Positions 18,723 through 44,462 are shown, numbered from the stretch's first letter. The stretch: 64,000 nt of DNA from Candidatus Omnitrophota bacterium (GCA_041663425.1 JBAYMS010000001.1:8884-72883); one strand, 5' to 3'. Made by a program: numbers and translations. Notes: generated by a model not told the origin, from the letters alone.

Positions 18723-20096
18723 TTAATTCTTAATGCTTTGTATCAACTTATCCACTATCGTCTTTAAACCAGTTTTATTTTTTAGTTCGTTTTCAATTTT
18801 TTCACAGGCATGGATAACGGTTGTGTGATCCCTGCCGCCAAACTGGTCGCCGATTTCAGGAAGAGAAAAATCGGTCAATTGCCTGGCCAGATACATTGCG
18901 ATCTGTCTCGGGTATGCGATTGCCTTGCTTCTTTTCTTCGCCCGCATATCTGAAAGCTTTATATCAAAATATTCAGCGACTTTTTTCTGGATGAGATCGA
19001 TCGTTATTTTTTTCTCACCCTCTATTATCATATCTTTTAAAACTTCTTTAGCCAGCTCAACAGAAACGTCCTTGCCGATAAGTTTCGCATATGCAACTAC
19101 CCGGATCAGCGCACCCTCAAGCTCTCTTATGTTTGTCTTTACTTTCTCAGCTAAAAAATAAAACACATCTTCTGATAATGCTATCGTTTCCTTCTCGGAT
19201 TTCTTTTTCAGTATCGCGGTGCGCGTTTCGAAATCCGGCGGCTGGATGTCAGTCACAAGCCCCCACTCAAACCTTGAAATAAGGCGCTCTTCAAGAGACT
19301 GTATCTCTTTCGGAGGGCGGTCGCTTGTAACCACTATCTGTTTATGTGCATCATAAAGAGCGTTAAAGGTGTGGAAGAATTCTTCCTGGGTTGATTCCTT
19401 ACCCGCTATGAATTGTATATCATCTATAAGAAGAATGTCAACATTGCGGTACTTTTCTCTGAACTTCTGCGTCGAGCGATTCTGTATCGAGCTTATAAGC
19501 TGATTTGTAAATTCTTCACTCGAAATATACAGAACTTTTGATTTGGGTGTTTTGTGCAGAGCGCTTTGTCCGATAGCATGCATCAGGTGGGTCTTTCCGA
19601 GCCCGACGCCGCCGTATATAAAAAGAGGGTTGTATGCTTTTGCCGGCGACTCAGAAACAGCCATTGATGCCGCATGCGCAAACCTGTTGCTCGGACCTAT
19701 GACAAAACTGTCAAAAGTGTATTTTGGGCTCAATCCTATTTCTTTAGCTGTGTCCGACGCCTGCCTTACAAAAGGCCAGAAAGGTTTGGATTCTTTTTTC
19801 TGCTCTTCCGGTTTAATTTTTTTAGCCGTATCATCTTCAGGTTTTTCACACAAGACAAAATCTATACGCACTTCTTTACCGACAACTTTTTTTACAGACT
19901 CTGTAAGAAGCGGCATGTAACGATCGAGCAGCCATACCTGGAAAAATTTATTCGGCACTTCCAATAAAATAGCTTCATCTGAAAGAGAGATGAATTTTAT
20001 AGGGCTGAACCATATGTTGTAGGTCTGATCATTTGAGAGATCTTTTTTAATGATCTCCAAAGCCATAGACCAGATAGAGGTATTGTCTGATGTCAC
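18723..20096 (-). CDS. dnaA: chromosomal replication initiator DnaA
   Basis: 457 aa with a GTG start. Walker A GGVGLGKTHL, AAA+ core and C-terminal DNA-binding domain (GGRDHTTVIHA). Confidence 0.95.
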   Translation of the reverse strand: MTSDNTSIWSMALEIIKKDLSNDQTYNIWFSPIKFISLSDEAILLEVPNKFFQVWLLDRYMPLLTESVKKVVGKEVRIDFVLCEKPEDDTAKKIKPEEQKKESKPFWPFVRQASDTAKEIGLSPKYTFDSFVIGPSNRFAHAASMAVSESPAKAYNPLFIYGGVGLGKTHLMHAIGQSALHKTPKSKVLYISSEEFTNQLISSIQNRSTQKFREKYRNVDILLIDDIQFIAGKESTQEEFFHTFNALYDAHKQIVVTSDRPPKEIQSLEERLISRFEWGLVTDIQPPDFETRTAILKKKSEKETIALSEDVFYFLAEKVKTNIRELEGALIRVVAYAKLIGKDVSVELAKEVLKDMIIEGEKKITIDLIQKKVAEYFDIKLSDMRAKKRSKAIAYPRQIAMYLARQLTDFSLPEIGDQFGGRDHTTVIHACEKIENELKNKTGLKTIVDKLIQSIKN

Positions 20097-20327
20097 GGAA
20101 TGCCTTTAGTTTACGGAATTAATGTTATCCACAGCTAAACAAGCACGGTTTCAACACAAAACCGAAAGTTATGCACAAGTTGTGCACAACCGTTTTCAGC
20201 ATTGGGACACCATTATAATGAATGAAATAGGTTTTTGCAACACAAAAGATATATTTTTTGTTGACGGAATTATTTGTTATGATATAATTACGATACCGAA
20301 AGTGTCTAAAATTAGAAAGGGACAACA
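20097..20327. other. DnaA-box cluster upstream of dnaA, shared with the rpmH promoter (candidate oriC / dnaA autoregulatory region)
   Basis: Perfect TTATCCACA at 20125-20133, TTATGCACA at 20169-20177 and TTGTGCACA at 20180-20188. An rpmH promoter-like TTGACG-N16-TGaTATAAT lies near 20260-20290. Confidence 0.6.
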
Positions 20328-20465
20328 ATGAAATACGGATTAACATGCAAATCGAACCTAAAACGTAAACGAAAACATGGTTTCAGGAAACGAATGAAAG
20401 ACCGTTGGGGCAGAGAAGTGCTTAAAAGGCGCAGACAGAAAGGCCGGCACAAGCTTACTGTATGA
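20328..20465 (+). CDS. rpmH: 50S ribosomal protein L34
   Basis: Below the ORF-track size cutoff. Translated by hand: [45 protein letters not shown]. It has the L34 signature (KRKR.HGFR.RM) and overlaps the rnpA start (ATGA). Confidence 0.85.
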
Positions 20466-20821
20466 TCTCCGACGAGAGATTCTGTAAAAAAGAACATATT
20501 CTCAAGTCAAAAGAGTTCAGTAAAGTATATAAAAAAGGATCGGCAGGCAGGATAAGCGGAGTTGTTTTGTATTGCCTGGAAAATAAGCTTGAGCACAATC
20601 GTTTGGGTTTTTCAATAGGGTCAAAAAATATTAAGCGCGCCACGTCCCGCAACCGCATACGAAGGTTGTTTAGAGAAGCTTACCGGAAAAATAAACGTAA
20701 ATTTAAGTGCGGCTTTGATATTGTTATGGTAGTGCGAAAAGACCTGCACAAGGATCTGACTTACAATTCCGCAGAAGCCGCTTTTTTGAAACTTGCTAAA
20801 GAGGTAAATCTGGCGGTATAA
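20462..20821 (+). CDS. rnpA: ribonuclease P protein component
   Basis: 119 aa, basic, with an RNR-like motif ([11 protein letters not shown]). Sits in the canonical rpmH-rnpA-yidD-yidC order. Confidence 0.85.
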
Positions 20822-35347: not shown

Positions 35348-36151
35348 ATGAAACAGCTGAACGAAAAAATACTGGATAATAAAAAGATGGGTGCAGGGTT
35401 CTGGCGCATGCGCATCTGTTCTGCGTATCTCGCCGGAAAGGCAAAGCCGGGGCAGTTTGTAGAGGTGAGGTGTTCGGCAGGCTCGGATCCGCTTTTGCGC
35501 AGGCCTTTGGGCATTCACAGGATCATAAAAGGCGGCGCGGAACTTTTATATGAAGTGGTCGGCAAAGGTACGGACATACTCTCTCAGAAGAAGAAGGGCG
35601 AGGAACTCGACCTGATAGGGCCCCTCGGAAACGGTTTTGATGTCCCCGGCCGTAAAGGGATAGCGATACTTGTTGCCGGCGGTAACGGAGTGGCTCCGTT
35701 ATTCGCGCTTGCGGAGAAAATTGAAAAGCTGGGATGGAAAGTTAAAGTGCTGATAGGTGCGCGCCACAATACGCATATTTTATGCGAAAAAGAATTTAAA
35801 TCGCTCGGGGCAGAGGTTATCGTTGCCACAGAGGATGGGTCAAAAGGACACAAAGGCCTTGTGACGCATCTACTGAAAACGGAGCTGGCAGGGGCACAAA
35901 CCGGTAAAGTAGTGAATGTATATGCCTGCGGGCCCATGGGGATGCTTAAGGCTGTCGCAAATATAGCGCGCGATTACAGAGCGCCGTGTCAGGTTTCGCT
36001 CGAGGAACGCATGGCATGCGGTGTAGGCGTGTGTCTGGGCTGCCCTGTTAAAATAAAAATAGGGCACGGGATAAACGAAGCCGGCTATACATATAAGATG
36101 GTTTGTAAAGACGGGCCTGTATTCGATGCAGAAGAAGTTTTCTGGGAATAA
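35348..36151 (+). CDS. pyrK: dihydroorotate dehydrogenase electron-transfer subunit
   Basis: 267 aa. Ferredoxin-reductase-like fold with a C-terminal Cys cluster (CGVGVCLGC). Confidence 0.85.
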   Translation: MKQLNEKILDNKKMGAGFWRMRICSAYLAGKAKPGQFVEVRCSAGSDPLLRRPLGIHRIIKGGAELLYEVVGKGTDILSQKKKGEELDLIGPLGNGFDVPGRKGIAILVAGGNGVAPLFALAEKIEKLGWKVKVLIGARHNTHILCEKEFKSLGAEVIVATEDGSKGHKGLVTHLLKTELAGAQTGKVVNVYACGPMGMLKAVANIARDYRAPCQVSLEERMACGVGVCLGCPVKIKIGHGINEAGYTYKMVCKDGPVFDAEEVFWE

Positions 36152-36155
36152 AAAT

Positions 36156-37079
36156 ATGAAACCTGATCTTCAAGTAAAAATAGGAACGCTGAAACTTAAA
36201 AACCCGGTCATGGTAGCGTCGGGGACATTCGGCGCTGAATACCGGGAGCTTGTCGATGTCGGTAAGCTGGGTGCGATAGTCACCAAGACCATTACGCTAA
36301 ACGGTCGCGCCGGCAATCCTGCCCCGAGAGTGGCGGAGGCATCTTCAGGTATGCTCAATTCGATAGGACTGGAAAACAAAGGGCTGGAAGATTTTATAAA
36401 CAAAAAAATACCGGCTTTTCCGGGCGGTGATACCAAACTTATTGTAAGTATTGCCGGAGACACCGAAGGTGAATTTACGCGCATGGTCGGAGAGCTCGAC
36501 AAAGTGAAGAAGGTGAGCGCTATAGAGATCAACCTCTCCTGCCCAAACGTAAAGCACGGCAGCAGGACCGGACTTACTGCCCAGGATGAGGACGCATCAT
36601 ACAGTGTAGTGCGCGCTGTGCGCAGGGCGACGGGACTGCCGATCATAGCGAAGCTTACTCCGAACGTAACCGATATAGCGAAGATAGCTGTGGCTGTGGA
36701 GAAGGCCGGTGCCGACGCTATCCTCGCAGTTAATACATTTGCCGCTATGGCTATCGATATCGAGACCCGCAGGCCTAAGCTCGGGAACGTGACGGGCGGT
36801 TTAAGCGGTCCGGCGATAAAACCTATAGCGCTGAAGATGATATGGGACATTTACAATAAAGTAGAAATCCCTATAATAGGTGTGGGCGGTATCATGAATT
36901 ATAAAGATGCCGTTGAATTTATGCTCTGCGGCGCGGCAGCGATACAGGTCGGCACGGCTACATTTGTAAATCCAAACACAGCGATCGAGATCATAAAAGG
37001 ACTTAATAAATACTGCAGTGATAAAAATATAAAAAATATGTCCGAGCTCGTCGGAAATATTAATATAGGCCGCTTGTAG
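36156..37079 (+). CDS. pyrD: dihydroorotate dehydrogenase (class 1B catalytic subunit)
   Basis: The start is taken at MKPDLQVKIG (36156), just after the pyrK stop, rather than the overlapping track start at 36126. Motifs include NPVMVASGTFG and EINLSCPN. Confidence 0.88.
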   Translation: MKPDLQVKIGTLKLKNPVMVASGTFGAEYRELVDVGKLGAIVTKTITLNGRAGNPAPRVAEASSGMLNSIGLENKGLEDFINKKIPAFPGGDTKLIVSIAGDTEGEFTRMVGELDKVKKVSAIEINLSCPNVKHGSRTGLTAQDEDASYSVVRAVRRATGLPIIAKLTPNVTDIAKIAVAVEKAGADAILAVNTFAAMAIDIETRRPKLGNVTGGLSGPAIKPIALKMIWDIYNKVEIPIIGVGGIMNYKDAVEFMLCGAAAIQVGTATFVNPNTAIEIIKGLNKYCSDKNIKNMSELVGNINIGRL

Positions 37080-37087
37080 AACTCGCG

Positions 37088-37120
37088 GCACTTAGCCACA
37101 CCGTGGCTTAATAAACTTGG
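37088..37120 (+). repeat. copy A of a ~33-nt 5'-leader motif (GCACTTAG-N-GTGGCTnAATAAACTTGG)
   Basis: GCACTTAGCCACACCGTGGCTTAATAAACTTGG is followed by AGcattATG of pyrF. Two more copies lie at 55046-55080 and 55098-55132. Confidence 0.6.
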
Positions 37121-37126
37121 AGCATT

Positions 37127-37840
37127 ATGACATCCATTAATAAATTGATAGTAGCGCTCGATGTAAATACCGAAGAAAAAGCGGTCGCCCTGGCTGAGAC
37201 GCTGAAAAATGAAGTGAGATTTCTCAAGATAGGCCTTGAGTTATTTTCAGCATGCGGGCCGAAGATAGTGGAGAGGATAAAAGAGACCGGCTGCGATGTA
37301 TTCCTCGACCTGAAATTTCATGACATTCCGACAACAGTTATGAAAGCCGCAGCAGCGGTAACTGCGCTCGAGCCTTTCATGTTCAATGTGCACGCGCTGG
37401 GCGGATATGAGATGATGAAACGGACTGCCGAGGCTGTAGCGAGCGAGACCTCAAGGCTCGAAATAGTAAAACCGAAAGTTCTGGCGGTGACGATACTTAC
37501 CAGCATGGACGAAAAGGCGATGAGAGAGATAGGGCTATCCTTAAATCCGAAAGACGCGGTTCTGAAATTGGCTGCTCTGGCGAAAAAAGCGGGCTTAGAC
37601 GGAGTGGTGGCTTCACCGTCCGAGACGAAAGCCATAAGGGAAGAGCTGGGCGAGGATTTTATTATAGTGACTCCGGGTGTGCGTCCGGAATGGGCCGCAG
37701 TAAATGATCAGAAGAGGGTCGCCACACCGAAAGCGGCAATAAAAGACGGCGCAAATTATATAGTTGTCGGCCGTCCGATAACGGAATATAAAGATCCTGC
37801 CGAAGCGGCCAGGCAGATACGAAAAGAGATGGAGATATGA
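37127..37840 (+). CDS. pyrF: orotidine 5'-phosphate decarboxylase
   Basis: 237 aa with VALDV and DLKFHDIPTT motifs. Confidence 0.88.
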   Translation: MTSINKLIVALDVNTEEKAVALAETLKNEVRFLKIGLELFSACGPKIVERIKETGCDVFLDLKFHDIPTTVMKAAAAVTALEPFMFNVHALGGYEMMKRTAEAVASETSRLEIVKPKVLAVTILTSMDEKAMREIGLSLNPKDAVLKLAALAKKAGLDGVVASPSETKAIREELGEDFIIVTPGVRPEWAAVNDQKRVATPKAAIKDGANYIVVGRPITEYKDPAEAARQIRKEMEI

Positions 37841-38406
37841 ACGAGAAAGAAGTTTTGGATGTATTTAATAAAAAGAATGCGTTGTTAACAGGCCATTTCA
37901 AATTATCGAGCGGCCTTCACAGTAAAAATTATCTGCAATGCGCCCTGATATTGCAGTATCCGGACATCGCGGAAGAGCTTTCGAAAGAGATAGCGAAAAG
38001 AGTTTCAAAAGAAAATATAGATGTGGTTGTAGGACCAGCTCTGGGCGGGGTAACATTTGCTTATGAGATCGCGAGAGCACTTAAAGTGCGCGGGCTATTT
38101 ACGGAACGACAGGAAGGTGCGATGGTGCTGCGCCGCGGTTTTACTATATCGCCGGGTGAGAAAGTTCTTGTGGCAGAAGACGTTATAACAACGGGCGGTT
38201 CTACTAAAGAAGTCATCGAAGTTGTAAAAAAGCTGGGCGGTATCGTGGTCGGAGTAGCGAGCATAATAGACAGAAGCTCAGAGCCTGTGGACTTCGGCGT
38301 GCCGTTTACGGCTCTTGCCAGGATAAAGGTTGAGACTTTCAAAGAAGAAGATTGTCCTCTCTGTAAGGCAAAAACCCCGATAACAAAGCCCGGCTCGAGA
38401 AAATAA
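37837..38406 (+). CDS. pyrE: orotate phosphoribosyltransferase
   Basis: 189 aa with PRTase motif VLVAEDVITTGGS. Confidence 0.88.
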   Translation: MNEKEVLDVFNKKNALLTGHFKLSSGLHSKNYLQCALILQYPDIAEELSKEIAKRVSKENIDVVVGPALGGVTFAYEIARALKVRGLFTERQEGAMVLRRGFTISPGEKVLVAEDVITTGGSTKEVIEVVKKLGGIVVGVASIIDRSSEPVDFGVPFTALARIKVETFKEEDCPLCKAKTPITKPGSRK

Positions 38407-38466: not shown

Positions 38467-38541
38467 GGGCAAGTAGCTCAATGGCGGAGCAATCGGTTTA
38501 CATCCGATAGGTTACAGGTTCGACCCCTGTCTTGCCCACCA
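38467..38541 (+). tRNA. tRNA-Val (anticodon TAC), encoded CCA
   Basis: GGGCAAGTAGCTCAATGGCGGAGCAATCGGTTTACATCCGATAGGTTACAGGTTCGACCCCTGTCTTGCCCACCA. The anticodon loop is TTTACAT. Confidence 0.85.
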
Positions 38542-38616
38542 CTTCTCTGAATAACCCAAGCCATGCAGTCCCGAGGAGATGTGGTTTGACTGATGCGACG
38601 AGGGACACTTAACCCT

Positions 38617-38859
38617 ATGAGCAAGTGGACTGTTTATATTCTTAAATGTAATGACGCTTCTTTATATACCGGCATTACGACCGATCTTGAAAAACGGGTA
38701 AAAAAGCACAATGAAGGCCGTGCTGCGAAGTACACGAGAGCAAAAAGGCCTGTTTCAGTGGTTTATACTGAAGGCGCTGTTAATTCATCCTCAGCTAAAA
38801 AGAGAGAAGCCGAGATAAAAAAATTATCTCGACAAGCTAAGGTAGAGCTGATAAAATAA
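38617..38859 (+). CDS. GIY-YIG (URI) domain nuclease-family protein
   Basis: WTVYILKCNDASLYTGITTDLEKRVKKHNEG matches the GIY..YIG..R..HN pattern. The start is taken at MSKW. It is sandwiched between tRNA-Val and tRNA-Asp. Confidence 0.75.
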   Translation: MSKWTVYILKCNDASLYTGITTDLEKRVKKHNEGRAAKYTRAKRPVSVVYTEGAVNSSSAKKREAEIKKLSRQAKVELIK

Positions 38860-38873
38860 GCTTCCAGATTTCC

Positions 38874-38950
38874 GGGGACGTAGTTCAGTTGGTTAGAACG
38901 TCAGATTGTCGATCTGAAGGTCGCGGGTTCGACCCCCGTCGTCCCCGCCA
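38874..38950 (+). tRNA. tRNA-Asp (anticodon GTC), encoded CCA
   Basis: GGGGACGTAGTTCAGTTGGTTAGAACGTCAGATTGTCGATCTGAAGGTCGCGGGTTCGACCCCCGTCGTCCCCGCCA. The anticodon loop is TTGTCGA. Confidence 0.85.
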
Positions 38951-38984: not shown

Positions 38985-39030
38985 TAGCCGTAACAAGTTG
39001 TAAATTCAACTGGTTACGGCTATTTTATTT
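38985..39030 (+). terminator. intrinsic terminator after tRNA-Asp
   Basis: A 15-bp stem TAGCCGTAACAAGTT / AACTGGTTACGGCTA with one mismatch and loop GTAAATTC, followed by TTTTATTT. Confidence 0.55.
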
Positions 39031-39104
39031 ATCTTGCGTGTTTTGGAAATTAGCGCTATTCTTGGAAGTGATGGCACAAAAATGGCACAGTCATAGGGCT
39101 CCGA

Positions 39105-39599
39105 ATGGCGAATAATATTGATGTTTCAAAACTTCCGCTAAGCAAGATATTGATTTTGTTTGGCGACTTAATGGATGAGCTGAAGAAAAGAGGCGTTGTT
39201 AGAACGCGTAATAATCCGGTAGCTGACTATGCCGAATGGCTAACGGTAAGAGTCTTTAGTCTTGGCATCCAAACAAGCTCTAACAAAGGCTTTGATGCCA
39301 TTGATAAAAAAGGAATTCGATACCAAATAAAAGGCCGTAGGCTCGATGCTTCAAACCCATCCCGGCAATTGGGGGTTATTCGCGATCTTGATAAAAAGGG
39401 ATTCGATTTTCTTATCGCTATCATATTTAACAAAGATTTTACTATTCACGATGCCTATAAAATTCCGCACGAGCTCATAGGCGAATACGCTCGTTATAGT
39501 AAACATCAAAATGGATATATATTACACCTTAAAGGAAAAATTCTTCTGGCAAAAGGCGTTGAGAATATTACCGGAGCATTAAGCAAAGTTTCGGCATGA
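39105..39599 (+). CDS. small hypothetical protein with PD-(D/E)xK-like motif spacing (putative nuclease-fold partner of the PHP-ATPase)
   Basis: 164 aa with E44 (DYAEW), D64 (GFDAID), Q74-I-K76 (YQIKGRR) and a hydrophobic strand FDFLIAIIF. It ends 7 nt before the next gene, which has its own GAGGAG SD. The fold assignment is by motif spacing only. Confidence 0.4.
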   Translation: MANNIDVSKLPLSKILILFGDLMDELKKRGVVRTRNNPVADYAEWLTVRVFSLGIQTSSNKGFDAIDKKGIRYQIKGRRLDASNPSRQLGVIRDLDKKGFDFLIAIIFNKDFTIHDAYKIPHELIGEYARYSKHQNGYILHLKGKILLAKGVENITGALSKVSA

Positions 39600-39606
39600 G
39601 GAGATT

Positions 39607-42477
39607 ATGAACTATCCACGAGGGTCGGAATGGAGAAAATGGGACTTACATTTACACACACCGTCTTCTTATGATTACGATGACAAGAGCGTCACAGATG
39701 AGCAATTGATTAAAACCTTAAAAGAAAACGAAATTACCGTTGTAGCTATAACGGATCATCATTTTATAGATGTTGAAAAGATAAAGAAACTACAAGAATT
39801 AGCAAAAGACGAAATTACAATATTCCCGGGGATTGAGCTTCGAGCAGAGCTGGGAGGTAGCGAATCCATCCATTTTATAGGAATATTCCCAGAGGATTCT
39901 GATGTAAATGATATTTGGACAAAATTACAGGGGCAGTTAGAATTAACGCCAGCGGATGTAAAGAAAAAAGGTAATGATAAGATTTATTGCCATTTGAATA
40001 AGGCCGCCGAGCTTATTCATCAGTTGGGAGGCATTATAACTATTCATGCTGGCTCGAAAAGTAACTCGGTTGAAAAAATCACTAATGCGCTTCCATATAA
40101 AGAAGCGCTTAAAGAAGACATTGTGAAATCTATCAATGTCTATGAAATCGGGAATTCAGCCGATGTGGAAGGATACAGAAGCAATGTTTTTCCGAACATA
40201 GGGATTAAAATTCCTTTGGTAATTTGTTCTGACAACCACGATATAAAAAAGTATGTGTTAAAAGAGAATTGTTGGATAAAAGCAGATCCAACATTTACCG
40301 GGTTAAAGCAGATTATATTAGAGCCGGAGGATAGGGTATATATTGGCAAAGCTCCAACGAGGAGGAAAAACCTCGCCAGCGTAATCGACAAGATTGAGAT
40401 TAGTAATTCTAACGGGTGGTTTGAGGAATCCCCTATTGTTTTAAACGAAGACTTGGTCACCATAATAGGAGAAAAAGGTGCCGGTAAGACCGCGCTTGCC
40501 GATTTTATAGCTCTGGCGGGCGGGGATTTTGGGCTTCAAAAAAGCGATGCTAGCTCTTTTGTATTCAAAGCTCTAACCCCTACCAAACAAATCGAGAAGA
40601 CCATTGAAAATTGTCAAGTAACTATCAAATGGAAAGAGGGCAATCCCGACCAGATAACTATAAACAAAGAGCTGGTTGATTATAAACCTACGAAGAAAGT
40701 AAAATATTTATCTCAAAGTTTTATTGAGGAAAAATGTCGCCCAGAACACGCTGATGAATTGAGAAAAGAAATCGAGAATATCGTTTTTCAATATATACCA
40801 ACATCCGATAGGCTTGGGCAAACAACATTTAACGATTTAAAACGTTTAATGACGCGGGGTATTGAAGTAGAAAAAAGTAACTGCAGACAGCTTTTATTCG
40901 ACCTCAATGGTGAAATTTCTATTCTAAGAGACGAGATAGATAATCTCGAAGTACAAAAGTCAACTAAGAAGAAAACTGAAGATGAAATAACTCAGTTAAA
41001 TGAACAGAAACCAAAACCTGCTGATGCCGAGGAAAAAGCCATCGAAGATAAGCTGGCTATTTTATATACCAAGAAAAGTGAGATTAACGAAAAAGTTGCA
41101 GAATGCAAGTTGCAATTAAGCACCATAGAATCTATAAAAACAAAGCTGCTAGCTCTAAGTCAATACGTTGAAAAAGAATTGATTAGCATTAAGACGGACC
41201 TTGATTCAATAGCTTTAGGCAGTATTTACAACAAGCTAACATTTTCAATAAATCCAGAATTTCATACGAAGCTTGATGAAGCTAAGAATAAGCTGACGAA
41301 ACAGATTAAAGATTTTGAAGGAGCGCCGGAAAAAGTATCGTCCCTCACCGAAGATGAGAAAAAACTAGAGCTGATAACGACTGATTTTGTCAATGGGCTC
41401 ACACTTTCTCGTTTAGATGTAATTATAGAATGGCTAGAAACAAAATCGAGCATTGCCTATGATGCAAGAAAAGTTATTAAGGATTTCGAAGAGAAAATAG
41501 AGAAAAATAAGAAAGCAGTAGCATCTTTAGAAAAAAGCATCGCCGAGGTAGAGAAAACAAAAAAACCTACTCTTGCGAAGAAAATCGAGGAAAGAAATAG
41601 TGCCTATAAAAGTTATTTCACTTTGCTCCAAAAAGAAAAAAGTGTATTTGAAAGCCTGAGCGCACCTATTAAAACAAAAATTGATTCAGAGAATGTTGGT
41701 GATAAGCAGATAGGTTACTCAGCAAGAATTGAATTTGATGTTAATGGATTTTATGAAAAAGCATGTGAAATAATAAATTTCAAAGCAGCTGGTCATTATC
41801 ATCAAGATGGCCAACTGTTATTTAAAGATATCAAAGCCATAGCAGAAAAGATTGAGCTCGCAGAAGATGCCGATGTTTGCGCTTGTCTTGTAGACCGGTT
41901 CATTCAAACATTCGAAAAAGATGATGGTAGCGATGTTGATATTAAAACTCAACTGAAAAAAGGTAAAAAACAAATTGATTTTGATGCATGGCTTTTTGGT
42001 ATTTCATTCTTCAGCGTGACATATAGCATAAAATACCAAGATACTTATATTGAATTGCTATCTCCTGGAAAAAAAGGGATAGTGTTGTTACTAATGTATC
42101 TCACGTTAGATGCTGAGAGTGGCATACCGTTGATTATAGACCAACCAGAAGAAAATCTAGACAACAAATCCGTATATGCGCATCTAATAGAATACTTCCG
42201 CCAAGCCAAGAAGCGGCGGCAAATTATCGTTGTAACACACAATCCGAATTTAGTATTAAATACAGATGCCGAACAAGTGCTTGTTGCTGATTTTCAAGTC
42301 GTACCACCTGCGGGGCAAGCAAGAATAAGATATATAAGCGGGTCTATAGAAAATTCGTTTATTAACGAGTCTCTCAAAGACCCTCTCAGAAGACAGGGTA
42401 TTCGCGAGCATGGTGCCGAGATATTGGAGGGCGGTAAAAAGGCCTTTATTCAGCGAAAAGATAAGTACGAATACTAA
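39607..42477 (+). CDS. PHP-domain phosphoesterase fused to Rad50/SbcC-like ABC ATPase with central coiled coil (Ppl-like architecture)
   Basis: 956 aa. PHP motifs are WDLHLHT, ITDHH, GIELR, IHAGS and SDNHD (aa 1-~230). Walker A is GEKGAGKT (aa 288-295). A long charged heptad-like region spans aa ~420-690. The signature-like LSPGKKG, Walker B LIIDQPEENLD and H-loop VVTHNPN follow. Confidence 0.7.
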   Translation: MNYPRGSEWRKWDLHLHTPSSYDYDDKSVTDEQLIKTLKENEITVVAITDHHFIDVEKIKKLQELAKDEITIFPGIELRAELGGSESIHFIGIFPEDSDVNDIWTKLQGQLELTPADVKKKGNDKIYCHLNKAAELIHQLGGIITIHAGSKSNSVEKITNALPYKEALKEDIVKSINVYEIGNSADVEGYRSNVFPNIGIKIPLVICSDNHDIKKYVLKENCWIKADPTFTGLKQIILEPEDRVYIGKAPTRRKNLASVIDKIEISNSNGWFEESPIVLNEDLVTIIGEKGAGKTALADFIALAGGDFGLQKSDASSFVFKALTPTKQIEKTIENCQVTIKWKEGNPDQITINKELVDYKPTKKVKYLSQSFIEEKCRPEHADELRKEIENIVFQYIPTSDRLGQTTFNDLKRLMTRGIEVEKSNCRQLLFDLNGEISILRDEIDNLEVQKSTKKKTEDEITQLNEQKPKPADAEEKAIEDKLAILYTKKSEINEKVAECKLQLSTIESIKTKLLALSQYVEKELISIKTDLDSIALGSIYNKLTFSINPEFHTKLDEAKNKLTKQIKDFEGAPEKVSSLTEDEKKLELITTDFVNGLTLSRLDVIIEWLETKSSIAYDARKVIKDFEEKIEKNKKAVASLEKSIAEVEKTKKPTLAKKIEERNSAYKSYFTLLQKEKSVFESLSAPIKTKIDSENVGDKQIGYSARIEFDVNGFYEKACEIINFKAAGHYHQDGQLLFKDIKAIAEKIELAEDADVCACLVDRFIQTFEKDDGSDVDIKTQLKKGKKQIDFDAWLFGISFFSVTYSIKYQDTYIELLSPGKKGIVLLLMYLTLDAESGIPLIIDQPEENLDNKSVYAHLIEYFRQAKKRRQIIVVTHNPNLVLNTDAEQVLVADFQVVPPAGQARIRYISGSIENSFINESLKDPLRRQGIREHGAEILEGGKKAFIQRKDKYEY

Positions 42478-42655
42478 GTTTAATAATCAATTGCTGAGAA
42501 TAAATATAAACAAGAACTGATTAATCGCTGGTCTAAGCTTTATGGTAAACAGATAACCGAAGAAGAATATCGACAGATTTGTGATAATTTAAGCGGTTAC
42601 ATTAAACTTTTGTATGAGTGGGATATGAAAGATAAAACGCAAAAAGGAGAGCACA

Positions 42656-42880
42656 ATGCCAAGGATAGCAAGTAATGTTTGCCCAGCGTGTCATAATAAG
42701 TTTCCTGCACACAAAGGTAACACGAAAACTTTTAGACAACTTACGCCGGCGGAGAGAAGTAGGTCTATTAGAATGATGGCTATCAATTTAAAGAAGGCTA
42801 TAAATGCTGACTTGCCATCGACCCGTATCAGACGGCTTTTTTGGGTTATAGATTATATGGCGCGGCAGGGAAGCAGGTAA
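42656..42880 (+). CDS. hypothetical small protein (CPACH Cys/His-containing N-terminus)
   Basis: 74-aa ORF with a good SD (AAGGAG 8 nt upstream). No recognisable family. Confidence 0.3.
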   Translation: MPRIASNVCPACHNKFPAHKGNTKTFRQLTPAERSRSIRMMAINLKKAINADLPSTRIRRLFWVIDYMARQGSR

Positions 42881-42883
42881 CAA

Positions 42884-43025
42884 ATGATACATGAAAAAAA
42901 CGTATTTAACGATATCTTCGCTGATTTGATTTGCCATTCCCAGTTTGATGGAGGGCATAATCCTTTAGATTATTTGCACTATATGGACAAAATGGAACAG
43001 GCTAGAAAAAATAATAATGAAGAAG
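42884..43025 (+). pseudogene. 5' fragment of a small ORF interrupted by the IS3-family element
   Basis: ATG at 42884 encodes MIHEKNVFNDIFADLICHSQFDGGHNPLDYLHYMDKMEQARKNNNEE, then reads into the IS left inverted repeat and terminates. Deleting 43026-44259 joins it in frame to the fragment at 44260-44462. Confidence 0.5.
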
Positions 43026-43037
43026 TGACCTTACCCC

Positions 43038-43913
43038 TTACACTGCACAGCTCGTAAGGTGAATTTCTGGTGTTTTTTGTTGTTCTTTCCAGGCCTTGGT
43101 GAACTCTGCCGGAGTTAGACCGTCTAACGATCCGTGAGGCCTGAATGTATTATACTCCACTCTCCAGTCTTCGATAATCTTTTTTGCTTCTTCAATCGTA
43201 ACGAAGTAATGTTGATTGAGGCATTCGTGCCGTAGCCTACCATTGAACGACTCGATAAAAGCGTTCTGTATGGGCTTGCCGGGCTTTATAAAGTCAAGCC
43301 TAGCACCGTTATCATACGCCCATTTATCAAGGGCTCGTCCCGCGAACTCAGGACCGTTATCGGTCGTGATTACTTGCGGACATCCTCTTGTAAGAACTAG
43401 CCAATCAAGCACTCTCGTTACTCTGTTACCGTCTATAGACGTATCGACTTCGATAGAGAGACATTCTTTAGTAAAGATATCAAGCACGTTCAGCGTCTTT
43501 ATCTTCCTGCCGTTCCATAACCCGTCTGACATAAAGTCCATCGCCCAGCGTTCATTGGGCTTCGAGGCTTCCGGTAGCTCTAGTCTGATCATTGAGGCTC
43601 TCTTGTGACGTTTGCGAAGCTTTAGCGCGAGGCTATTCTCCTTATAGATGCGCTCGGTGCGCTTATGGTTTACTACAAGTCCCTCACGATGCAATATATC
43701 GTGAAGCATCGGAAGTCCCCAGCTCTTATGCGTAGCTATAAGCTCCTTCATACGGTCTAATATCTTCGCATCGTTATTAGCTCTACTGGTCTTGTAATAA
43801 TAGCTTGATCTATTAAGCTCTACAAGCCTGCATGATCTAGCCTTCGACAGCCCAAAGCGCTCTTTTAACCGAGCTACAGCAAGTCTCTTTACTTTGGGCT
43901 TAGGAAGTTTTTT
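43038..43913 (-). CDS. IS3-family transposase OrfB (DDE integrase core), expressed as OrfAB via -1 frameshift
   Basis: The track ORF (43038-43751) begins at an internal Met. The same frame stays open upstream to the slippery site AAAAAAC (revcomp of 43907-43913) and encodes KKLPKPKVKRLAVARLKERFGLSKARSCRLVELNRSSYYYK... rve-type motifs are WAMDFM, TDNGPEF and ESFNGRLRHECLN. Confidence 0.8.
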   Translation of the reverse strand, partial: KKLPKPKVKRLAVARLKERFGLSKARSCRLVELNRSSYYYKTSRANNDAKILDRMKELIATHKSWGLPMLHDILHREGLVVNHKRTERIYKENSLALKLRKRHKRASMIRLELPEASKPNERWAMDFMSDGLWNGRKIKTLNVLDIFTKECLSIEVDTSIDGNRVTRVLDWLVLTRGCPQVITTDNGPEFAGRALDKWAYDNGARLDFIKPGKPIQNAFIESFNGRLRHECLNQHYFVTIEEAKKIIEDWRVEYNTFRPHGSLDGLTPAEFTKAWKEQQKTPEIHLTSCAV

Positions 43914-44167
43914 GAGTTGAGCGCCTTTAACGCCTGGTTATCGAGTGTTAAGTCCGCGACTATGTTCTTTAGTCTGCGGTTCTCATCCTCGAGCGCCCTT
44001 AGTTTCTTCGCGTCTGATACTTCCATGCCGCCATACTTCGATATCCACTTATAGATCGTGCCTTCACAGACATTAGCTTCTCTTGAGATATCTGAAACCG
44101 CCACTCCTTGCTCATGTCTCTTTAAAAAAGCTATTATCTGTTCCTCTGTAAATCTTTTGCGTGACAT
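43889..44167 (-). CDS. IS3-family transposase OrfA (HTH + leucine zipper)
   Basis: 92 aa, MSRKRFTEEQIIAFLKRHEQG...KLRALEDENRRLKNIVADLTLDNQALK, typical of IS3 OrfA. Confidence 0.85.
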   Translation of the reverse strand: MSRKRFTEEQIIAFLKRHEQGVAVSDISREANVCEGTIYKWISKYGGMEVSDAKKLRALEDENRRLKNIVADLTLDNQALKALNSKNFLSPK

Positions 44168-44259
44168 ATCCCGAGCCTCCTTTACGTAGCTATTGGTAGC
44201 TACGGTTATACACTAGGAAACTCGCCTTGTAAACTGTCTAGTTTAGCGGGGTAGGGTCA

Positions 44260-44462
44260 CTTTCGTCAGTTTAAATTATGGCGAGCCCGCAGATTTTTAC
44301 ATTGTCCCAAGCAAAGTCGTTGCAACCTTCATAAAAAAACATAATCGAAAGTGGCTTAAGACCCCCGGCAGAAAAGGCCAGAAACACAACCAAACCTCAA
44401 TGAGACAATTTAGAGACGACGAACAGCGATATCGTAACGCATATTACCTCATGAAGTTGTAA
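44260..44462 (+). pseudogene. 3' fragment of the IS-interrupted small ORF
   Basis: An open frame without a start encodes FVSLNYGEPADFYIVPSKVVATFIKKHNRKWLKTPGRKGQKHNQTSMRQFRDDEQRYRNAYYLMKL, with a stop at 44460-44462. An in-frame stop just inside the IS end precedes it. Confidence 0.5.

Follow-up and report, generated by a model that had tools for sequence, protein, structure and literature searches.

We analysed two adjacent genes in a 64,000-nucleotide (nt) stretch of DNA from a Candidatus Omnitrophota bacterium (GCA_041663425.1 JBAYMS010000001.1:8884-72883). The whole stretch is referred to here as the window, and positions are counted from its first letter. In the source metagenome-assembled genome both genes are annotated as 'hypothetical protein'. 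A previous reading of this DNA, made without database searches (the sequence-only reading), had proposed that they form a new, obligate two-gene module for DNA targeting or defence, pairing a small nuclease-like protein with a fusion of a PHP nuclease and a Rad50-like ATPase. Our results lead to a correction of the annotation: both genes can now be named, gene 1 as a predicted BisI-family restriction endonuclease (REase) dependent on 5-methylcytosine (5mC), and gene 2 as a predicted TrlF-family, Ppl-like nuclease-ATPase.

The open reading frame (ORF) listing placed the two genes co-directionally at 39105-39599 (164 amino acids, aa) and 39607-42477 (956 aa), and the junction, read directly, is ...GCA TGA GGAGATT ATG. 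The earlier description of two co-directional genes lying 7 nt apart, the second with its own Shine-Dalgarno sequence, was therefore exact. Such a layout would be compatible with co-transcription and coupled translation of the two genes. The features of the pair are as follows.

39105..39599, + strand: gene 1, 164 aa, predicted BisI-family (Pfam DUF6998) modification-dependent REase (phmmer against PDB, PADLOC, Pfam)
39597..39609, + strand: gene 1/gene 2 junction, with TGA, a GAGGAG Shine-Dalgarno sequence overlapping the gene 1 stop, a 7-nt spacer and ATG
39607..40356, + strand: gene 2 aa 1-250, predicted PHP metal-dependent phosphoesterase/nuclease domain (H15, H17, D50, E77, H147, D209, H211; PHP barrel in the model)
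40384..40806, + strand: gene 2 aa 260-400, predicted N-terminal lobe of an ABC/SMC-type ATPase head (Walker A GEKGAGKT with K294, Q-loop Q370; SMC_N and Rad50/Smc matches, model)
40828..41691, + strand: gene 2 aa 408-695, predicted antiparallel coiled-coil insert (long helices 474-534 and 618-695; AlphaFold2 secondary structure, SMC/Rad50-type folds)
41710..42351, + strand: gene 2 aa 702-915, predicted C-terminal lobe of the ATPase head (LSPGKKG, Walker B IIDQPE with Q846, D-loop NLD, H-loop H878)
42352..42477, + strand: gene 2 aa 916-956 and stop, conserved C-terminal tail (pLDDT <50; L940, E941, G942, A946, F947 and R950 invariant)

Family assignment of the two genes

A phmmer search of the PDB with gene 1 returned two crystallised BisI-family enzymes, Eco15I (8q5m, E=1.2e-42) and NhoI (8q5n, E=1.4e-19), and the alignment with the catalytic domain of Eco15I was gap-free over 142 residues with 48% identity. 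PADLOC matched the full length of gene 1 to mREase_II (PDLC03212, Type II methyl-directed restriction enzymes; E=3e-60). The Pfam model DUF6998 was barely passed (28.8 bits, cutoff 27) and was the sole domain detected, indicating a single small domain and no additional domain for sensing modification.

The active site points in the same direction. The spacing E44...D64...Q74-x-K76, from which a nuclease had been suggested earlier, is present and constitutes a PD-QxK site whose residues correspond to Eco15I E49, D69, Q79 and K81 (offset +5). Replacement of any of these four by alanine abolishes Eco15I activity (PMC11347163). All of 22 homologues of gene 1 have E44, D64 and K76, and at least 90% of them have Q74. 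Gene 1 also retains R78, Q88, R93 and H134, the counterparts of residues to which the structure paper assigned recognition of the base and methyl groups (PMC11347163). By homology, then, gene 1 is a BisI-family Type IIM 5mC-dependent REase. It had been taken for an undescribed partner protein, but the BisI family has been characterised both biochemically and structurally (PMC4926085, PMC11347163). Its members are stand-alone homodimers that cleave GCNGC bearing two to four 5mC or 5-hydroxymethylcytosine (5hmC) bases (PMC4926085, PMC11347163), and in a survey 23 of 34 BisI homologues were active when expressed alone (PMC4926085). No ATPase partner is mentioned in these two papers or in a third paper on BisI.

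Gene 2 scored 566.4 bits against the NCBIfam equivalog model TrlF (NF045780, 'TrlF family AAA-like ATPase'; cutoff 350), with residues 5-955 aligned to model positions 1-944. Profile searches had been recommended for the PHP and ATPase parts. For the ATPase they were clear, with Pfam SMC_N at 48 bits (cutoff 40; aa 260-887) and AAA_21 at 31 bits (cutoff 27; aa 750-883), whereas PHP fell slightly short at 25.4 bits (cutoff 26.4). All of the motifs that had been quoted were found in place: for the PHP domain, WDLHLHT at 12-18 (with H15 and H17), ITDHH at 48-52, GIELR at 75-79, IHAGS at 146-150 and SDNHD at 208-212; for the ATPase, GEKGAGKT at 288-295, LSPGKKG at 818-824, LIIDQPEENLD at 842-852 and VVTHNPN at 875-881. 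Most of the residues in these motifs, including those that bind metal and nucleotide, are invariant across 14 homologues (34-65% identity).

A search of the PDB with the single gene 2 sequence gave no matches, and a profile was needed. The profile built from 14 sequences matched PHP nucleases (RNase AM type, EndoQ) over residues 14-219 and the heads of Rad50, Smc and AriA over the Walker A and signature/Walker B regions, with Rad50 and Smc covering 262-309. An AlphaFold2 model of gene 2 (mean pLDDT 76) was compared with the PDB by Foldseek. Its ATPase part matched Rad50 (top, 7zr1_C, E=4.7e-9), Smc, JetC, MukB, LmuB and RecN, and its PHP part matched RNase AM and EndoQ (9etk, 7ug9, 5zb8). We conclude from these comparisons that gene 2 is a full-length TrlF-family protein, with a predicted PHP nuclease followed by a Rad50/SMC-like ABC head into which a coiled coil is inserted, as the sequence-only reading had it. 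That reading went on to describe an SbcCD/Mre11-Rad50-like machine in one chain. The Rad50-like head with a PHP nuclease stands, but in the strict sense the description does not, since a cysteine scan of all 956 residues detected no CxxC zinc hook.

In the Walker B motif IIDQPE (aa 845-848, 42139-42150), Gln replaces the canonical catalytic Glu. This Gln is invariant in the 14 homologues and belongs to the pattern with which at least 576 genomic relatives were found. A natural Walker B Gln, in effect an 'EQ' state, would fit nucleotide sensing better than rapid hydrolysis. The C-terminal tail could be an interaction or autoinhibitory peptide.

Gene 2 had also been likened to Ppl, which Gao et al. 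reportedly described in 2020 as a single-gene anti-phage protein with PHP and ATPase parts. The likeness holds for the architecture and for the N-terminal region. The NCBIfam Ppl model (NF042955) aligned to residues 6-305 only (120 bits, E=6e-35), and the PADLOC check, which gave mREase_II for gene 1, gave Ppl for gene 2 (E=2e-31), with its best stretch at residues 6-304, that is, the PHP domain plus the Walker A region. It does not hold for family membership, given that the Ppl cutoff is 1000 bits and that gene 2 belongs to the separate TrlF family. A third related NCBIfam family, Spaf_1101, matches the C-terminal part of gene 2. Judged by these model scores, TrlF is a sister family of Ppl and gene 2 is not Ppl.

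Co-occurrence of the two families and setting of the pair

The pairing was searched for from both sides. Starting from TrlF, a BisI-family hidden Markov model (HMM) was run over the 6-kb flanks of 80 genome loci spanning many phyla, and none of them had a BisI-family ORF within 6 kb of TrlF. Six of the closest TrlF relatives (49-62% identity) likewise have no BisI-family gene beside them. The closest homologue (62%, also from Omnitrophota) follows a Type I hsdM-S-R operon at a distance of 150 nt; the 56% homologue is a lone gene flanked by toxin-antitoxin pairs; the 51% homologue is also on its own, two genes from an REase-ARP gene; and two homologues of ~50% identity lie inside Type III-like operons in the order mod-trlF-res, with gaps of 4-24 nt. 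Two further close homologues are solitary, one of them among housekeeping-type genes.

On the BisI side, a full TrlF gene was beside a BisI homologue in 0 of 85 loci, 83 of which were metagenomic or viral (of the 83, 58 leave 1 kb or more downstream and 47 leave 1 kb or more upstream). The BisI homologues with 78% and 63% identity to gene 1 have no TrlF alongside. Among plasmids, TrlF occurs on 273 records and BisI homologues on 105, and no adjacency of the two was seen in six records inspected (four TrlF, two BisI).

A few candidates for co-occurrence were considered and rejected. Phaeobacter plasmids appeared in both match lists, but on pP97_c the BisI-sized ORF next to TrlF has no relationship to BisI (E=3.8), and the BisI homologues listed for Phaeobacter are on other plasmids. 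Two contigs possibly shared by TrlF and BisI (2932 and 3236 nt) are too short to hold both genes. Finally, a PHP ORF lies beside BisI in three related metagenomic loci (L155 3180-4070, L161 6518-7438 and L162 711-1634). It is ~300 aa long, convergent and stand-alone, and corresponds to a generic phosphoesterase (sub-threshold matches of the nucleoside-bisphosphate phosphatase/RNase AM type); we judged its adjacency to be coincidental.

We conclude that the BisI-TrlF pairing is specific to this lineage and is not a conserved two-gene system. The sequence-only reading had itself offered a lack of co-occurring homologues as the observation that would count against an obligate module, and the counts of 0/80 TrlF and 0/85 BisI loci are that observation.

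The surroundings of the pair agree with the defence-island context described earlier, as the tRNA-Asp gene, the low GC content, the IS3 element and the broken ORFs were all confirmed. The following features flank the two genes.

38874..38950, + strand: tRNA-Asp (GTC), found by ARAGORN; left edge of the AT-rich tract
38985..39035, + strand: terminator-like hairpin (inverted repeat I2, with a 16-nt stem, 94% complementary, and a 6-nt loop, then a T-rich run)
43026..44259, - strand: IS3-family insertion sequence, with orfA (HTH_Tnp_1) and orfB (rve) by Pfam and terminal inverted repeats found by aligning both ends; right side of the AT-rich tract
42884..43025 and 44260-44456, + strand: small ORF split by the IS3 element, which rejoins in frame to give 114 aa (frame reconstruction)

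Gene 1 starts 155 nt 3' of tRNA-Asp, and the intervening hairpin looks like a terminator that would set gene 1 apart from the tRNA genes. Both genes are carried on an AT-rich tract of ~4 kb (GC 0.37-0.39; gene 1 0.388, gene 2 0.370) that ends at the IS3 element; the GC content of the pyr genes immediately upstream (35348-38406) is 0.489 and that of the whole window is 0.431. The 3' end of tRNA-Asp has no second copy within the window, so that there is no att repeat by which to define an island or fix its boundaries. The IS3 orfA and orfB lie on the minus strand at about 43.0-44.2 kb; no clear target-site duplication was seen at the ends of the element, and the rejoined 114-aa ORF had no Pfam match. 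The pair is unchanged in three assemblies, all from the same population; the two besides the present one, which hold the only further copies of the pair, break ~380 nt after gene 2.

Three further observations concern the window. An ORF of 88 aa with a GIY-YIG domain (38593-38859) lies between tRNA-Val (38467-38541) and tRNA-Asp. Directly after the gene 2 stop there is a start-less ORF remnant of ~60 aa (42484-42660), among the broken ORFs of the sequence-only reading, with insignificant Pfam matches only. At a distance from the pair, in the region ~19000-20500, GC skew and AT skew both switch sign near 20 kb, where the cumulative GC skew has its minimum; such a pattern could mark a replication origin or reflect a change of coding strand.

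Given these results, we consider it probable that the locus consists of two autonomous, separately known defence genes, co-transcribed in a small horizontally acquired islet beside tRNA-Asp. The analysis established to which family each gene belongs, that the catalytic motifs are intact, that the junction is operon-like, that the setting is that of an island and that the two families do not co-occur in the loci covered; what we infer is the biochemical activities, by homology, and a role of TrlF in defence. By homology, a homodimer of gene 1 would cut GCNGC-like sites carrying several C5-modified cytosines, and its targets would be phages or plasmids with such cytosines; the activity of gene 2 would be like that of Ppl, to which it is distantly related; and neither gene would need the other.

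Several points weigh against this interpretation. First, residues 134-135 of gene 1 (39504-39509) are H134-Q135, where the published motif for the internal-methyl pocket, which also uses an Arg of the proximal subunit, is (H/R)(V/I/T/M). The His and the Arg (R93) are present, and the second position of the motif is Gln. HQ is found in most of the clade, and the modification or sequence specificity of gene 1 may accordingly differ, for example towards 5hmC. Second, gene 2 is below the curated Ppl threshold, which makes the transfer of the Ppl mechanism an extrapolation. Third, the only genetics on the TrlF family come from the Photorhabdus locus discussed below, where the operon is tied to growth arrest via trlG and not trlF, and a defence role of the family is putative. 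Fourth, the 7-nt spacing with a Shine-Dalgarno sequence over the stop is tighter than expected of unrelated neighbours, and this junction leaves room for the two genes to be functionally coupled in this lineage, as they may be.

TrlF genes in restriction operons

Genes of the TrlF family are common, with at least 576 matches in contigs sampled at one genome per species, and their distribution is patchy across many phyla. Of the 273 plasmid records, 144 are from Klebsiella, and the plasmids are mostly conjugative. Plasmid homologues such as L179 (Klebsiella pneumoniae p1856-1) and L182 (Yersinia ruckeri pYR4) lie beside Abi-family genes, AAA-ATPase and UvrD-helicase genes, and PLD-family genes. 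A Pfam census of the immediate neighbours of TrlF yielded restriction subunits, Mrr, BsuBI/PstI REase, methyltransferases, Vsr, HipA, AbiEii, Shedu, nSTAND3 and integrases; toxin-antitoxin and TIR genes are also among the neighbours. Of 60 upstream neighbours sampled, 1 was TrlG-like.

Where a same-strand neighbour is tightly coupled to TrlF (gap <55 nt), it is usually a restriction-modification (R-M) gene: 8 of 10 tested were R-M genes of different types, comprising two HsdS, two HsdR, two ResIII-type Res, one BsuBI/PstI REase and one N6/N4 methyltransferase. The order mod-trlF-res (gaps 4-24 nt) or mod-res-trlF is found in L170 (182-7315), L175 (3332-10339), L003, L069, L078 and L018, and the set of mod, res and trlF recurs, with variable order, across about 8 of 89 loci. 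With local HMMs built for Mod, Res, HsdR and HsdS, matches were obtained in 18 of 87 TrlF loci versus 2 of 85 BisI loci, a comparison biased by the seeding of the HMMs from TrlF loci and by the shorter BisI contigs. Overall, TrlF is usually solitary, and about one locus in five has it attached to a restriction system or placed within one (Type I, II and III). In the copy of the temperature restriction locus (TRL) on Yersinia ruckeri pYR3, trlR and trlF are separated by genes that carry a Type I M subunit annotation (PMC7554251). A search of the literature found no described link between PHP-ATPases and R-M operons. We conclude that TrlF is mostly solitary defence-island cargo that tends, recurrently and irrespective of type, to enter restriction operons, and that the BisI-TrlF pair in the window is one instance of this tendency rather than a fixed system.

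An alternative that goes further is that TrlF serves as a facultative, plug-in second-stage effector, which would 'cut then chew': after a restriction enzyme, the BisI-type one here and a Type I, II or III one at other loci, has made the first break in foreign DNA, the Rad50-like head would load on the DNA ends and the PHP exonuclease would degrade them, preventing repair and recombinational escape. As an addition to the two autonomous activities, the supply of ends by restriction cuts and their degradation by TrlF is plausible but unproven. It is plausible because restriction cleavage gives ends of the type that triggers Ppl and because TrlF recurs in restriction operons. According to a review, Ppl is a 3'-5' single-stranded DNA exonuclease that nucleoside triphosphates inhibit when bound to both the PHP domain and the NTPase domain, and its trigger is 3'-OH ends produced by endonucleases, which it reportedly needs (PMC12904381). 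The R-M genes among the tightly coupled neighbours, the mod-trlF-res order in two independent loci, the position of TrlF after hsdMSR in the closest homologue, the difference in R-M matches between TrlF and BisI loci and the gene order on pYR3 all speak for such a role. However, about three quarters of TrlF genes have no R-M neighbour and many are solitary, a degree of adjacency is to be expected given that no defence genes are commoner than R-M genes, the HMM control is biased as stated, and the part given to TrlF is drawn by analogy. We therefore regard this alternative as possible but doubtful. We hold just as tentatively its wider form, in which TrlF-family PHP/SMC-like ATPases would be widespread, undescribed accessory effectors recruited by restriction systems of any type, TrlF would sense and destroy the ends left by a restriction break, and the window would hold the first such two-stage defence against phages with hypermodified cytosine.

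It is improbable that gene 2 has no part in defence and is instead a factor for DNA repair or end processing (an SbcCD-like housekeeping function), or for growth control as in Photorhabdus, that merely lies beside a restriction gene. Its Rad50/SMC-like fold would suit such a function, the locus after which the family is named causes arrest of growth at 36 C, and one homologue is, as noted, among housekeeping-type genes. Nevertheless, the patchy distribution of the family over many phyla and 273 plasmids, a position that is not syntenic, neighbours of the defence and mobile type, a GC content that is low relative to the host, and N-terminal homology to the proven anti-phage protein Ppl argue against it, as do the missing zinc hook and the lack of a match to an Mre11/SbcD-type Metallophos partner among the annotated flanking ORFs. 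An obligate new DNA-targeting system, with the small nuclease dedicated to the PHP-ATPase, is the least credible explanation and very unlikely: the 7-nt spacing, the coupled Shine-Dalgarno sequence and the constancy of the pair in three assemblies (all one population) would favour it, but in the loci and plasmid records covered the two families do not co-occur outside this organism, most TrlF genes are solitary or have other partners, and BisI-family enzymes are active alone in vitro (PMC4926085, PMC11347163).

We thus retain the reading of two autonomous defence genes. The pair is not a new obligate system because each gene falls in an already named family and the pair was found in one organism only, and the proposed two-gene system is not worth pursuing as such. 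The TrlF family is a different matter, as it is named yet functionally uncharacterised, common, and found repeatedly inside or at the end of restriction operons. If its linkage to restriction is functional, it would represent a general mechanism by which restriction is reinforced through destruction of the cut DNA ends, and would provide a concrete hypothesis for a protein family present on many clinical plasmids.

Comparison with known systems

Among the BisI-family enzymes, gene 1 is like Eco15I in having the same E...D...QxK active site and the size of a single domain, and differs from it in lacking the extra C-terminal domain of Eco15I. It differs from the family as a whole in that a TrlF gene lies 7 nt 3' of it; none is beside any characterised member or sampled homologue.

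With Ppl, gene 2 shares the combination of a PHP nuclease and an NTPase in one polypeptide, the overall design and a similar length, whereas the C-terminal two thirds of gene 2 do not align with the Ppl model.

The name TrlF comes from trlR-trlF-trlG, the TRL of Photorhabdus laumondii, in which TrlR is a small regulator, mutations in trlG (AlbA_2 plus HATPase_c_4) relieve the arrest of growth at 36 C and trlF had no demonstrated role (PMC7554251). Gene 2 has the same PHP and ABC-ATPase architecture as trlF. The loci differ in that the annotated ORFs flanking the pair (GIY-YIG, BisI, small ORFs, IS3) include no TrlG- or TrlR-like gene.

Finally, gene 2 resembles Mre11-Rad50/SbcCD in its ABC head split by an antiparallel coiled coil and in its predicted metal-dependent nuclease. 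In contrast to these complexes, its coiled coil, with arms of about 60-80 residues, is short and without the zinc hook, its Walker B Glu is replaced by Gln, and its nuclease has a PHP fold fused in cis, where Mre11-Rad50/SbcCD has a separate subunit of the calcineurin fold. In sum, both genes are additional members of known families, and it is their juxtaposition that is specific to this lineage.

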